Notes under the pieces: model-generated | Told to the model about the DNA's origin: nothing | Seen by the model: only the letters and a program-made list of their open reading frames with translations | The model's database searches: none | Assembly (NCBI RefSeq): GCF_000019345.1 | Contig: NC_010503.1 | Span: 150,001 to 182,000, forward strand | Origin: Ureaplasma parvum serovar 3 str. ATCC 27815 | GTDB taxonomy: Bacteria > Bacillota_I > Bacilli_A > Mycoplasmatales > Mycoplasmoidaceae | Reading direction: 5' to 3' | Length of the DNA stretch: 32,000 bases | Program-made: the position numbers and the translations under genes | Shown here: one piece after another, positions 19,557-28,667 of the stretch | How positions within the stretch are numbered: the first letter of the stretch is position 1 | Layout of the letters: each line of letters starts with the position of its first letter

Positions 19557-19967
19557 TTATCGATCTTTATAAGCGATTAAAATTGATTCGTTTAATTTAA
19601 TTTTAGATTTTAATTGAAGTTTTTTCTTATCATCTTCTTCATTATTTAAATCATGTTTTAATTGATTTAACGAAGAATTAATTTCATCAATTTGAATTTC
19701 ATCTAAAAATTTAAAATAGTCACTAAAAACACGAACTTGATGTTGTTCAATATAAACTATACCATCTAATAATAATAGTGGTTTACGTGGAGTATTTGGT
19801 AATTCACGAATATAAGCAACATGGTTTTCAATTGTTGACATCAAAGGGTTATGGTCAGGTAAAACGGTAATTCGTCCTTCTGATGTTTTTAATTCAACAC
19901 TATACACATCTTTTTCTAAAATTTGTGCATAAGGTGTAACAATTTTTAATTTAGTTAAATTAGCCAT
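19557..19967 (-). CDS. atpC: F1 ATP synthase epsilon subunit (136 aa)
   Basis: It is the last gene of the operon, and its ATG overlaps the atpD stop. Its size and N-terminal beta-sandwich-like sequence (LKIVTPYAQILEKDVYSVELKTSEGRITVLPDHNPLMS) are typical of epsilon. Confidence 0.85.
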   Translation of the reverse strand: MANLTKLKIVTPYAQILEKDVYSVELKTSEGRITVLPDHNPLMSTIENHVAYIRELPNTPRKPLLLLDGIVYIEQHQVRVFSDYFKFLDEIQIDEINSSLNQLKHDLNNEEDDKKKLQLKSKIKLNESILIAYKDR

Positions 19968-21361
19968 TATTTATTTTTTGCTGCTTTTTCAAAAACGTCA
20001 TCAATTTTACCAACATATAAGAAATGTTGTTCATGAATATCATCACATTCACCATCAAGAATTTTTCTAAATCCTTCAATAGTATCTTCAAGTTTAACTG
20101 ATAATCCAGGTTGACCAGAGAATTTTTCAGCAACGTGGCTTGGCTGTGATAAGTAGTTACGTACTTTACGTGCGCGCATTACTAATTGACGATCTTCTTC
20201 GCTTAATTCATCCATTCCAAGAATTGCAATAATATCTTGTAATTCCATAAATCTTTGTAAAATTTCAATTACACGACGCGCAACACTGTAGTGTTTTACA
20301 CCAACAACTAATGGATCTAATAAACGACTTGTTGATTGTAGTGGTGAAATTGCTGGATATAATCCCAATGAGGCAATAGCTCTATCTAAAACAACTTTAG
20401 CATCTAAGTGTGAAAAAGTTGTTGCTGGTGCGGGGTCAGTTAAGTCATCAGCTGGAACATAAACAGCTTGAACCGATGTAATTGATCCTTTTTTAGTTGA
20501 TGTAATTCGTTCTTGTAATTGACCCATTTCAAAAGCAAGTGTTGGTTGATAACCAACTGCTGATGGCATTCGTCCAAGTAAAGCAGAAACTTCTGAACCA
20601 GCTTGTGTGAATCTAAAAATGTTATCGATAAATAATAAAACATCTTGACCAAAAGCATCACGGAATTCTTCAGCCATTGTTAAACCGCTTAATGCGACGC
20701 GCATACGTGCTCCTGGTGGTTCATTCATTTGTCCAAAGACAAGAGCTGTTTTATCTAAAACATCTGACTCAGCCATTTCATAGTATAAATCATTTCCTTC
20801 ACGTGTTCTTTCTCCAACTCCAGCAAAAACTGATAAACCACCATGATTTTTAGCGATGTTATGAATTAATTCTTGCATTAAAACTGTTTTACCAACTCCA
20901 GCACCACCAAATAAACCGATCTTACCACCCTTTGCAAAAGGTACAAGTAAGTCGACAACTTTAATTCCCGTTTCTAGGATTTCAATTGATTCTGCTTGTT
21001 CGGCGAATGAAGGTGCAGGACGATGAATTGGCATACGTTTACCTGTTGGTGCAGGTTGTTCATCAATTGGATCACCAGTTACATTGAACATACGTCCAAG
21101 TACTTGTTTACCAACAGGCATTGTGATTGGTTTTTGAGTATTAATTACCTCTTGTCCACGTACTAGTCCATCAGTTGTATCCATTGCAATACATCTTGCA
21201 ATATTATCACCAACTAATTGAGAAACCTCAAGTACTAATTTAGAACCATGATTGTTTAATTCTAAAGCAGTGTTAATTTCAGGCAATCATTCAGAGGGAA
21301 AACGCACGTCAACAACAGGGCCCAAAATTTGGTTAATTTTACCTTTTTTAACTTCTGTCAT
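19967..21361 (-). CDS. atpD: F1 ATP synthase beta subunit (464 aa)
   Basis: Walker [11 protein letters not shown], then [30 protein letters not shown] and [12 protein letters not shown]. The track ORF is extended upstream across TGA at 21287-21289 to ATG 21359-21361 ([25 protein letters not shown]...). An AAGGAG RBS precedes it. Confidence 0.95.
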
Positions 21362-21387
21362 ATTTTGCTCCTTATTGTTTATAGTTT

Positions 21388-22248
21388 CTAATCATCACTA
21401 CCAGCAACAATTTCAGTAATTTCACGAGTAATTTTACCTTGGCGTAATGTATTGTAAATTAATTTATAATTTTCAGCCAATGCTTTGGCATTTTTTGTAG
21501 CTGCATCCATTGCATTGCGTCGTGATGCATTTTCAGAGATTTTTGATTCAATTAATGAACCATATAGAACTGTTGCAATATAAGTAGGTAGAATTTTTTT
21601 AACAAGCTCAAACTTGTTAGGTTTAAAAATAATATTATCTTTTGCTAATTCAATAGTTTCAGCAAGATGATCTTTAATTAAAGCTGTCTTATCGAATGGA
21701 AGAACATCTATAACACTTACTTCAAAAGTAATTGCGTTAATAAATTTAGTATATATAATACAAATTTTATTAACTTCACCTTGTGAATATAATTCAAGAG
21801 CCTCGCGCGCAATTTGTAAACTCATGTCAAATGTTAAATCATTATCATTTAAATTCAAATAAGTATTAACTTGATCAACACGACCTGATAAACGCATAAA
21901 GTCATGTCCTTTTTTTCCAATTGTAAATGTTATATCAGTTTCATTTACAATTTTAGAAATTAATTTATTAACATTATAGTTATAAGAACCCGCTAAACCC
22001 ATTGTTGAATTAATAGTGATATATAAAGTTCGATCTTTCGCATTTGGAATTTTTAAAAATTCAACATCATCAACAACAGACAATAATAACCCAATAACAT
22101 CATAGTAATCATGACAATATTCTTTAATTGCAGCTAAACGATCACGCTGACGTTTTAATTTTGCAGTTGCCACTAGTTTCATTGCATTCGTAATCTTAGC
22201 AGTTGTTTGAACTGAGTTAATTTTTCGTTTCATTGCATCTAAAGACAT
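21388..22248 (-). CDS. atpG: F1 ATP synthase gamma subunit (286 aa)
   Basis: N-terminus KRKINSVQTTAKITNAMKLVATAKL and C-terminus ASRRNAMDAATKNA...LIYNTLRQGKITREITEIVAG are classical gamma termini. Confidence 0.95.
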   Translation of the reverse strand: MSLDAMKRKINSVQTTAKITNAMKLVATAKLKRQRDRLAAIKEYCHDYYDVIGLLLSVVDDVEFLKIPNAKDRTLYITINSTMGLAGSYNYNVNKLISKIVNETDITFTIGKKGHDFMRLSGRVDQVNTYLNLNDNDLTFDMSLQIAREALELYSQGEVNKICIIYTKFINAITFEVSVIDVLPFDKTALIKDHLAETIELAKDNIIFKPNKFELVKKILPTYIATVLYGSLIESKISENASRRNAMDAATKNAKALAENYKLIYNTLRQGKITREITEIVAGSDD

Positions 22249-22249
22249 A

Positions 22250-26995: not shown

Positions 26996-27325
26996 TTAAG
27001 CAACGAAAATAATTAAGATAGAAACAATAAGTGCATAAATAGCAACAGCTTCAGCCAATGCTAAACCAACAATCATTGTACTTAAAATCTTTGGTTGTGC
27101 TTCTGGGTTACGAGCTACAGCTTGTACAGCATTAGCTGTAGAAAAACCTTGCATTAAACCAACTGCACCAGCTGCTAACATTGTAATTCCTGTACCAATA
27201 TATTTACCTAAGTAAGCAATTCCTGCACCGTTTGCAAGTGAACCTACATTTTCAGAAGCAATTGCTGGTAAATTAGCTTCAATATGTGATGAAATAACAT
27301 TTGTAATATCAATAAATGATGACAT
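26996..27325 (-). CDS. atpE: Fo ATP synthase c subunit (109 aa)
   Basis: It forms a hairpin of two hydrophobic helices with the polar loop ARNPEAQ and the essential carboxylate context LALAEAVAIYALIV. An AGGAGA RBS is present. Confidence 0.9.
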   Translation of the reverse strand: MSSFIDITNVISSHIEANLPAIASENVGSLANGAGIAYLGKYIGTGITMLAAGAVGLMQGFSTANAVQAVARNPEAQPKILSTMIVGLALAEAVAIYALIVSILIIFVA

Positions 27326-27373
27326 AAATATCTCCTAAATATTTTTTAATTTAATTAAACGTTAATAAGTTTT

Positions 27374-28201
27374 TTATAAAACTACTTGAGCCTCATTATT
27401 TTGAATTTGATTTTGAGTATCAAGTTCTGCTAATTTTTTAGCAGCAAGTTTTTCGGCTTTTTTATGCGCAAGATGAGCGTGGTGTTCTTCACCTTCTTTG
27501 ATTTCAAGACCTCAGTTAATACTTGTTAATAATGTAAATACAAAAGCTTGAATTGTTCCTGCAAAACAAGTAAAATAACCAATTAAGATTGGTAAAATTA
27601 CTACTGCAGCAATTAATGATACACCAACTCAAGGAACTACGTTTGTAAAACCTGCAAATGCTCAATATGTTATGTTTAATAAAATTGCAGCAGCAGAGAT
27701 ATTACCTCATAAACGGAATGTTAATGAAATAATAGGGGTTAATTTAGAAACGATTTCCAAAGGGTTTATCATAATTGGAAAACCTTTAATTTTAAAAGCA
27801 AATTTTAAAAAGAATGAAGCTTTTTGGTATTTTAAGGCAACAATTTGACCACCGATCACGGTTCCAAGAGCCATTGCTAATGGAACGGCAGATGCAGTTG
27901 TTGCTTCTTTGAAACCAAATAAAGAAACTAAGTTAGCTGTAAAAATATAACAAAATGTAAATAGTACATAAGGTGCTAATTTAACATGTTTAGCGCCCAT
28001 TGTATCAACAACTAGTCCTCTAAAATAATCAACAATCATTCCAATAATAATTACAAAACGGTTTGGCACATCATGTACAGTTAACTTTTTAACCATACTA
28101 AAATAAATCAACGAAACTGTTCCAATAATTAAAGTTACCATAATGATTGCAGCAATATGTGGAAGTGCAATCATTATATCAAGCGGGCTATAATTTTCCA
28201 C
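27374..28201 (-). CDS. atpB: Fo ATP synthase a subunit with a charged C-terminal tail of about 45 aa (275 aa)
   Basis: The GTG start at 28199-28201 is preceded by a strong GGAGGTGA SD. Track ORF 27707..28201 continues through four TGAs to TAA at 27374-27376 (checked codon by codon). The conserved Arg context is LTFRLWGNISAAAILL, and the last TM segments are ILPILIGYFTCFAGTIQAFVFTLLT. Confidence 0.9.
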
Positions 28202-28226
28202 TGTTTCACCTCCAATGAATAATGAA

Positions 28227-28667
28227 TTATTTTTTTTCTCCTTTATCTTTTTTAATTCCTAAATAAATTTGCATCCCCATTTGGATAAAAAACATAAAAA
28301 ATGTTAAAACAAATAATGAGATGGTCTCAAAAATAGATTGATAAAGGTTAACAAGATTACCAATGATCAAAGGCACTAATATTAGAAAATTAAATAAAAT
28401 GTAAATAGTGCCAAAAGCAAAAAAATTTGCTGGTAATCGACGATATTTTTTGGGATTGACACCTAAATTATTCATTTTTAAACGCTTATTTAATAATTTA
28501 GAAATAATGAAAATTCGTAAAAGTGTAATTCCAAATCCAAAAGGAATAACTAACAAGTAACTATAAAAAAAAGATCAACTAGCTTCTAATAAAATACCCA
28601 AAAAAACAAATACCACAAACGATACTGATAGAAAGGGTAAAAAAATTATTAGATAACTATTGATCAT
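28227..28667 (-). CDS. atpI: AtpI-like small membrane protein at the head of the atp operon (146 aa)
   Basis: This hydrophobic protein has about 4 TM segments and lies immediately upstream of atpB. The track ORF (TTG start at 28556) is extended across TGA at 28575-28577 to ATG 28665-28667. The assignment rests on position and topology only. Confidence 0.6.

Follow-up and report, generated by a model that had tools for sequence, protein, structure and literature searches.

This work concerns the ATP synthase (atp) operon in a 32,000-nucleotide (nt) stretch of the Ureaplasma parvum serovar 3 str. ATCC 27815 chromosome (NC_010503.1, positions 150,001 to 182,000), hereafter the window. We found that the operon encodes a complete F1Fo enzyme with three additions: a second, short delta gene (atpH2, product delta2, UU133 by gene order), a gene between atpA and atpG for a protein with two transmembrane (TM) helices (UU131), and a tail of about 300 amino acids (aa) on the alpha subunit, composed of an acidic linker, a lead-in motif and an ASCH domain. 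At a probability of roughly 0.6, we favor the reading that this is one housekeeping F1Fo operon in which delta2 and UU131 are accessory parts of the complex, and in which the ASCH domain is a tethered passenger of alpha rather than a regulator of the ATPase. An earlier note on the same DNA, made without database searches, had counted three lineage-specific additions; these are genuine, being conserved genus-wide in five other Ureaplasma-type loci.

Neither the alpha tail nor its linker gave a direct Pfam match. The last 127 residues of alpha match positions 185-311 of the NCBIfam family NF008917, 'L22/unknown domain fusion' (E 3e-44). A profile search gathered 2226 relatives of this terminal domain, and of three stand-alone relatives scanned with Pfam, two match ASCH (PF04266). 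When a profile of 50 sequences was compared with the PDB, it retrieved ZmASCH, the ASCH protein of Zymomonas mobilis (5GUS/5GUQ, E 4e-23). An AlphaFold (AF2) model of the domain, built from the 50-sequence alignment, reached a predicted local distance difference test (pLDDT) score of 96.9, and Foldseek aligned it to ZmASCH 5GUS/5GUQ with a template modeling score of 0.87 and a root-mean-square deviation of 1.8 Å, along with matches to the ASCH domains of TRIP4 and YqfB. The label "ASCH-like", previously attached to this segment, was therefore right, as shown by the profile search and the structure model. The domain is present in a single copy in the window. ZmASCH is a ribonuclease specific for single-stranded RNA, in which Tyr47 is critical for RNA binding and cleavage (PMC5615036). 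The Tyr47 equivalent is invariant in our alignment, and the equivalents of Tyr47 and Thr49 are both kept in the alpha-borne domain (VYVT).

The region between the alpha core and the ASCH domain (aa 501-678) has a net charge of -44 and an isoelectric point (pI) of 4.1. Across species, the linker is 109-178 aa long, variable in sequence and always acidic. An origin of the linker by repeat expansion was considered and rejected, as no tandem repeats were found.

We surveyed the carriers of the ASCH module using word-based and exhaustive profile searches, six genome loci and Pfam scans. C-terminal fusions were found on bS20 of Malacoplasma muris, on uS3 in metagenome-assembled genomes (MAGs) of uncultured Mycoplasma/Malacoplasma, on uL22 of U. 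canigenitalium, U. parvum (RL22_UREPA) and U. urealyticum, on bS16 in one cluster from a MAG named 'Ureaplasma sp.' by NCBI, on AtpA of Ureaplasma, and on AtpG (601 aa) of an uncultured mollicute (L018). Two further proteins, P0013 and P0059, carry the module behind an N-terminal membrane anchor. The L22 protein of U. parvum (311 aa) has its own ASCH copy, a paralog that is 55% identical to the copy on AtpA. About 20 aa before the domain, a lead-in motif, [DE]x[LI]xxRExxxxV, recurs on AtpA, AtpG, L22, S3, S16, S20 and the TM proteins. The fused modules are monophyletic with respect to the stand-alone ASCH relatives of about 125 aa, which are widespread outside the fused clade. The earlier note had suggested that the extras are stalk or crown components of the enzyme; for the ASCH domain this is not supported, since it is also found on uS3, bS16, bS20, uL22, AtpG and membrane anchors.

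In 14/15 fusions the ASCH domain has a pI of about 9.5. Net linker charge is -13 to -44 on AtpA, on AtpG and on one membrane anchor, and most ribosomal carriers have near-neutral or basic linkers. The chemistry of the leash thus appears to be tuned to the carrier.

The AtpG fusion belongs to a sister clade, an uncultured mollicute represented in Logan assemblies by L025:5789-11876 and L018:1-4581. Here, alpha is 528 aa long without ASCH and is followed by a 2-TM protein of 228-237 aa, and the ASCH domain sits on gamma. A C-terminal tail on gamma would need to exit via the top of F1, which is the usual site of the delta N-terminal domain.

Because the same module is found on ribosomal proteins, AtpG and membrane anchors, the ASCH domain most likely has a nucleic-acid-related function of its own, with alpha as an abundant and fixed carrier. 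We picture the alpha tail as an acidic, presumably disordered leash of 110-180 aa that ends, after the lead-in motif, in a basic ZmASCH-type domain. Carriage on alpha would place three ASCH copies on each F1 near the membrane, where the acidic leash would mask the basic domain or keep it off the anionic membrane. Display on a leash from varied carriers, with a chemistry tuned to each, disfavors a dedicated ATPase regulator, and a tethered passenger is the more likely role.

It is unlikely, in our estimate, that all three extras are dedicated structural or regulatory parts of the enzyme, with the alpha tail acting as an auto-inhibitor or sensor and delta2 and UU131 forming an enlarged stator. 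Such an arrangement would account for the co-inheritance of all three in every Ureaplasma-type locus and for the occurrence of the ASCH module on an F1 subunit in two lineages, once on alpha and once on gamma. It would also agree with the regulation of rotation by mycobacterial alpha C-terminal extensions (PMC8698299, PMC8617483), and Pereyre 2009 tied the atypical deltas to urea-driven energetics. However, the identical module with its lead-in is carried by four ribosomal proteins, among them the L22 of U. parvum itself, and by simple membrane anchors. Moreover, the long leash evolves fast and differs in length between species, unlike a docking regulator, and the ASCH fold is that of a family of nucleic-acid-binding proteins.

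The position of the short motif, at a fixed distance before ASCH on every carrier, raises another explanation, namely that the alpha-ASCH and ribosomal fusions are a polyprotein-style device in which the lead-in motif is a cleavage site and free ASCH is released. Stand-alone relatives are the rule outside the fused clade, which would agree with this. We nevertheless regard this as very improbable: no protease or cleavage evidence was found, and within the fused clade the module is always tethered, even on plain TM anchors, where release would defeat the anchor. The co-variation of linker charge with carrier type also suggests that the linker works while attached.

Besides the passenger on alpha, the favored reading holds that delta2 is an accessory, genus-specific part of the complex. 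This protein is catalogued as 'ATP synthase delta chain C-term' (Q9PR11_UREPA), and an identical delta2 was found on NCBI chromosomes, with adjoining genes that have Pfam DUF1410. Its architecture comprises an N-terminal helix and the delta C-terminal domain only. The C-terminal domain of OSCP (PF00213) was recognized, and neither Pfam nor NCBIfam gave a match to OSCP positions 1-92, the N-terminal alpha-binding helical bundle. Orthologs of delta2 from five other loci form a clade apart from the C-terminal domains of full-length deltas, which suggests that the duplication predates the divergence of the sampled Ureaplasma species.

delta2 also matches TIGR03321, the N-ATPase subunit b, at positions 168-241/246. 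N-ATPase loci are without atpH and encode a b subunit with a long extension (PMC4154653); by analogy, this b subunit would be a precedent for a delta C-terminal domain that works at the end of b in the absence of its N-terminal partner. We predict that delta2 probably docks at the C-termini of the b subunits, as the delta C-terminal domain does, and serves as an added stator element. delta2 is a plausible accessory subunit of F1Fo. In the sister-clade locus L025, a 98-aa protein with the delta C-terminal domain is the sole delta gene product encoded between atpF and atpA, and the operon has no full-length delta.

The second accessory candidate is catalogued as 'Uncharacterized protein UU131' (Y131_UREPA). 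Its hydropathy profile places TM helices within aa ~18-52 and ~198-228, giving an external loop of about 150 aa between them and a basic cytosolic tail. Homologs were found in Ureaplasma only, with 43-86% identity and always between atpA and atpG. Pfam contained no relative of UU131, and a PDB profile search gave chance-level matches only. Conservation is highest in a cytosolic N-terminal motif (EF.K.PK.KQ.FT.WF), in the second TM helix (MMP.M...IIV.KL.TV) and in a juxtamembrane basic helix, a pattern more suggestive of contact with a membrane complex than of a surface antigen. UU131 would be translationally coupled to atpA, and its conserved parts suggest contact with Fo or the stator. From its position, coupling and conservation, it is plausibly an Fo or stator accessory or an assembly factor.

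The 2-TM protein that follows alpha in the sister clade has the same topology and the same position as UU131. A profile-profile comparison of the two reached 18% probability, over the TM helix only, and we make no claim of homology between them.

To assess conservation, we compared the operon with those of U. zalophigenitalium (L020), Ureaplasma sp. ES3154-GEN (L021), the metagenomic species L022 and L017, and the probable U. urealyticum L023. In these five Ureaplasma-type loci the order is identical: atpI-like, B, E, F, H, short H, long A, TM protein, G, D, C. The long AtpA ranges from 730 to 799 aa and the TM protein from 268 to 297 aa. In the more distant species, identity to U. parvum is 41-48% for delta2, 47-57% for UU131 and 38-44% for delta, which implies that the stalk subunits evolve at least as fast as the extras.

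We also estimated the ratio of nonsynonymous to synonymous substitution rates (dN/dS) between U. parvum and L023. The values are 0.018 for the alpha core, 0.06 for delta, 0.09 for b, 0.11 for ASCH, 0.16 for UU131 and 0.32-0.40 for the acidic linker. delta2 has the highest ratio among the operon genes, 0.34, from 99 codons with a dS of 0.096. By this measure, the three extras are under purifying selection, with no sign that any of them is decaying.

The high ratio of delta2 bears on a further explanation, that the extras are co-expressed hitch-hikers unrelated to ATP synthase, retained only because the operon is strongly and constitutively expressed and promoters are few in this genome. UU131 would then be an independent membrane or surface protein, delta2 a duplication remnant with a marginal role, and ASCH a passenger. 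The large external loop of UU131, its lack of similarity to any Fo subunit and the absence of detectable sequence homology with its positional counterpart in the sister clade all agree with this. Yet the extras hold their place among the core genes even where identity between species falls to 40-57%, and the TAATG coupling and gaps of 1-9 nt argue for stoichiometric co-production. In addition, the cytosolic and TM parts of UU131, not its external loop, are the most conserved, and a protein with only the delta C-terminal domain is the sole delta of the L025 operon. We consider it unlikely that the extras are such hitch-hikers.

Several observations weigh against the favored combination of two accessory subunits and an ASCH passenger with its own nucleic-acid-related function. 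Iyer et al. reportedly described in 2006 the K..E.R motif of ASCH proteins as GxKxxExR. In place of this motif and of the PPQS loop, which supply the Arg32, Gln127 and Ser128 contacts in ZmASCH, K..F[FY]K and GPSG are found in all fused modules of mollicutes. The fused clade has thus replaced the modelled RNA contacts of ZmASCH (E..R by F.K, PPQS by GPSG); therefore, nucleic-acid binding by the alpha-borne ASCH is not assured, and its function may have shifted. The module is on ATP synthase in two lineages (alpha in Ureaplasma, gamma in L018/L025), and this recurrence on two F1 subunits may point to a functional link with the enzyme. Exceptions to the linker-charge pattern are one S16 linker at net -7 and one membrane-anchor linker at net 0. 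No known protein is recognizably homologous to UU131, as judged from Pfam, the PDB and the sister-clade profile. Finally, the dN/dS of delta2 is noisy, given its few codons and low dS.

Part of this system had been noticed before. Koumandou and Kossida 2014 recorded that one ATPF1A of U. parvum is extended by about 250 aa at its C-terminus and that ATPF1D is duplicated within the locus. Searched by gene number, the literature yielded only Pereyre 2009, which, citing Glass 2000, tied the 'atypical delta subunits UU133, UU134' to urea-driven energy production. The operon itself was known and annotated, and two of the three extras, the extended alpha and the second delta, had been remarked on in print but, it appears, never explained. 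Kim et al. 2017 stated that ASCH domains show homology to 'ribosomal proteins', and the ribosomal fusions had thus been glimpsed. Our literature searches turned up no paper that describes the alpha tail as a module of ZmASCH type common to ribosomal proteins, AtpG and membrane anchors.

The core of the enzyme is intact. Direct Pfam matches were obtained for seven subunits (a, c, b, delta, alpha, gamma and epsilon). Beta was outside the direct Pfam scan and was assigned by its motifs together with precomputed Pfam matches (ATP-synt_ab_N, ATP-synt_ab and ATP-synt_VA_C) on the identical 464-aa atpD product of loci L007-L012; its identity to atpD of other Ureaplasma species is 92-93%. Walker A is present in alpha (GDRQTGKT) and beta (GGAGVGKT), and beta also has DELSEED. 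The c-subunit carboxylate lies in LAEAVAIY and the a-subunit Arg in LTFRLWGN, and atpH scores 94 bits against TIGR01145 (cutoff 57.5). Pfam and the essential-residue motifs thus agree with the previous statement that all eight standard subunits are intact.

All eight core subunits (a, c, b, delta, alpha, gamma, beta, epsilon) are encoded in one cluster, as in a type-1 operon. Type 2/3 clusters consist of seven genes with X0 proteins and are without delta, b and Fo a/c (PMC3369863). All of these subunits are present here, which upholds the assignment to the type-1 housekeeping enzyme rather than to type 2/3. The only other alpha/beta pair reported for U. parvum is UU053/UU054, which lies in a separate cluster among conserved hypothetical proteins (PMC2751442), and it is the one extra atpA-like/atpD-like pair that Beven 2012 (PMC3369863) reported for this species. 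The strong purifying selection seen here, with dN/dS values of 0.02-0.16 for most genes, speaks against a degenerating duplicate.

One premise of the earlier note, that F1Fo runs mainly in the hydrolysis direction, is wrong for Ureaplasma. About 95% of Ureaplasma ATP is made via F1Fo, driven by urea hydrolysis and the resulting electrochemical gradient (PMC5015763; PMC13436400); therefore, the enzyme runs in synthesis and the hydrolysis premise fails here. F1Fo is the main ATP producer of the genus, powered by the urease-derived ion gradient.

The first gene of the operon had been called atpI-like by position and topology only, and this caution was justified. The protein has four TM helices and is encoded upstream of atpB. 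It had no Pfam match, and its NCBIfam match to MG406_fam (E 0.0018, 18.7 bits) was below the cutoff of 40. A counterpart is found at the same position in other Ureaplasma loci, with 28-89% identity and a dN/dS of 0.13. Subunit b carries a lipobox, LLTSC (aa 24-28), before its TM helix, which is conserved in all Ureaplasma loci; subunit b of L025 has a similar one, FLASC.

Two further extensions were observed in Fo. Subunit a ends, past its Pfam match, in a conserved, charged, His-containing C-terminal tail of about 45 aa (EIKEGEEHHAHLAHKKAEKLAAKK..., 27374-27520), which four other Ureaplasma loci share, as does L025 in part, and which had not been listed among the additions. In the ice worm, ATP synthase activity is reportedly raised by a His-rich extension of ATP6 (PMC12035521). 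Subunit c has an N-terminal extension of about 40 aa (27200-27325), also present in other Ureaplasma loci and L025.

The window is AT-rich, and we called open reading frames (ORFs) with genetic code 4, because table-11 calls split genes at TGA. Under code 4, eleven minus-strand genes run from 28667 to 19557 (Table 1), so that the gene order and coordinates proposed earlier hold with the Pfam assignments. From atpI-like to atpC, the intergenic gaps are 25, 48, 68, 3, 9, 2, -1, 1, 26 and -1 nt, close to the previous range of 0-70 nt. Start and stop codons overlap as TAATG at atpA/UU131 and atpD/atpC. Shine-Dalgarno-like sites precede most operon genes, with TAGGAAG upstream of delta2. A hairpin at 19550-19521 is the strongest terminator-like candidate in the region, and within the operon the minus strand has one other candidate, a weak stem of 7 bp in atpD. 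The description of a single terminator after atpC was thus accurate, and the operon is probably transcribed as one unit closed by this terminator.

Table 1. Features of the atp operon in the window
Feature	Coordinates	Strand	Details
atpI-like	28227-28667	-	code-4 ORF, 146 aa from ATG; alternative GTG start at 28682 gives 151 aa
atpB (subunit a)	27374-28201	-	275 aa; Pfam ATP-synt_A E 1e-34, aa 21-228
atpE (subunit c)	26996-27325	-	109 aa; Pfam ATP-synt_C aa 43-105
atpF (subunit b)	26310-26927	-	205 aa; Pfam ATP-synt_B aa 50-180
atpH (full-length delta/OSCP)	25767-26306	-	179 aa; Pfam OSCP positions 3-170/172, E 7e-37
atpH2/delta2 (UU133 by gene order)	25458-25757	-	99 aa; OSCP positions 93-168/172, E 2.5e-16
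atpA	23056-25455	-	799 aa; Pfam alpha domains stop at aa 494
atpA alpha core, aa 1-503	23947-25455	-	Pfam ATP-synt_ab_N, ATP-synt_ab, ATP-synt_ab_C
Acidic linker of alpha tail, aa 504-652	23500-23946	-	fast-evolving
Pre-domain motif (...EKQTI)	23419-23499	-	conserved, accompanies ASCH module
ASCH domain, aa 680-799	23059-23418	-	NCBIfam, PDB profile, AF2, Foldseek
UU131 (2-TM ORF)	22250-23056	-	268 aa, six TGA codons; Y131_UREPA
atpG (gamma)	21388-22248	-	286 aa; Pfam ATP-synt E 2e-72, full length
atpD (beta)	19967-21361	-	464 aa; motifs and Pfam on identical product
atpC (epsilon)	19557-19967	-	136 aa; Pfam ATP-synt_DE_N
Intrinsic terminator	19521-19550	-	13-bp stem then T-run, 7 nt past atpC stop

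Just past the terminator lies a 101-aa ORF (19109-19414, minus strand) with two hydrophobic segments, which is kept in U. parvum strains. We considered counting it as the twelfth gene of the operon but rejected this, given its place past the terminator and its absence after atpC in U. zalophigenitalium L020 and ES3154-GEN L021. Farther downstream of the operon (14532-18982, minus strand) are two large ORFs, of 1084 aa (...ISLSNCS) and 394 aa (...VIVACTN), whose N-termini are of lipoprotein type and which have no family assignment. Within positions 1-2600 of the window, Rfam identified the end of a 23S rRNA (1-88), a 5S rRNA (153-256), a tRNA (1614-1684) and a small signal recognition particle RNA (2497-2594, minus strand).

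Compared with known systems, the operon shares with the canonical type-1 operon (atpIBEFHAGDC) its gene order, the eight core subunits, the essential residues and the organization as a single operon; Ureaplasma adds the gene for a delta C-terminal domain, the 2-TM gene between atpA and atpG, the ~300-aa alpha tail and the extensions of a and c. The b-subunit lipobox is in common with M. pneumoniae. Pyrowolakis et al. reportedly found in 1998 that subunit b of M. pneumoniae is a lipoprotein. In mycobacteria, the alpha extension is a short peptide of about 35 aa that engages gamma, whereas the Ureaplasma tail is a long acidic leash with a folded ASCH domain that also occurs on ribosomal proteins. 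The mycobacterial F-ATP synthase likewise has a lineage-specific alpha C-terminal extension, together with a b-delta fusion and a remodelled stalk (PMC8698299, PMC8617483).

N-ATPase b (TIGR03321), like delta2, has the delta C-terminal domain without the N-terminal one, but in Ureaplasma this domain is a separate gene beside a full delta and the operon is type 1. With ZmASCH, the Ureaplasma domain shares the fold, the Tyr47 and Thr49 equivalents and a basic character; unlike ZmASCH, it is fused via a long linker, and the equivalents of Arg32, Gln127, Ser128 and the Glu of K..E.R are replaced. The type 2/3 F1-like X0 ATPases (Beven 2012) come from the same organism group and have alpha-, beta-, gamma- and epsilon-like cores. 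The mitochondrial ATP synthases of Euglena (PMC6930080) and Acanthamoeba (PMC13632647) are likewise reported to have a conserved rotary core decorated with clade-specific subunits and tethered unrelated proteins; those are eukaryotic, membrane-shaping dimers, whereas Ureaplasma is a minimal bacterium whose tethered domain also occurs on the ribosome.

Ureaplasma are among the few minimal bacteria that live on chemiosmotic ATP synthesis; therefore, their F1Fo is of interest as a drug target and also as a natural experiment on how much redecoration a bacterial enzyme of this kind tolerates. The additions divide into two kinds: delta2 and UU131 are probably genuine stator or Fo accessories, and the ASCH domain is one that ribosomes carry as well. 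This tells structural biologists what to seek in a cryo-electron microscopy map, and offers RNA biologists a testable 'tethered ASCH' module with six or more carriers. Though improbable in our view, a leashed ZmASCH module on both the ribosome and the ATP synthase or membrane in the Ureaplasma-related mollicutes could couple RNA handling or translation, physically or functionally, to the energy machine of the membrane. If true, then with delta2, UU131 and the tails of subunits a and c, the Ureaplasma F1Fo would be a structurally new bacterial ATP synthase, and the enzyme of the sister clade (L025/L018) would be one that works without a delta N-terminal domain and with a C-terminal tail on gamma.

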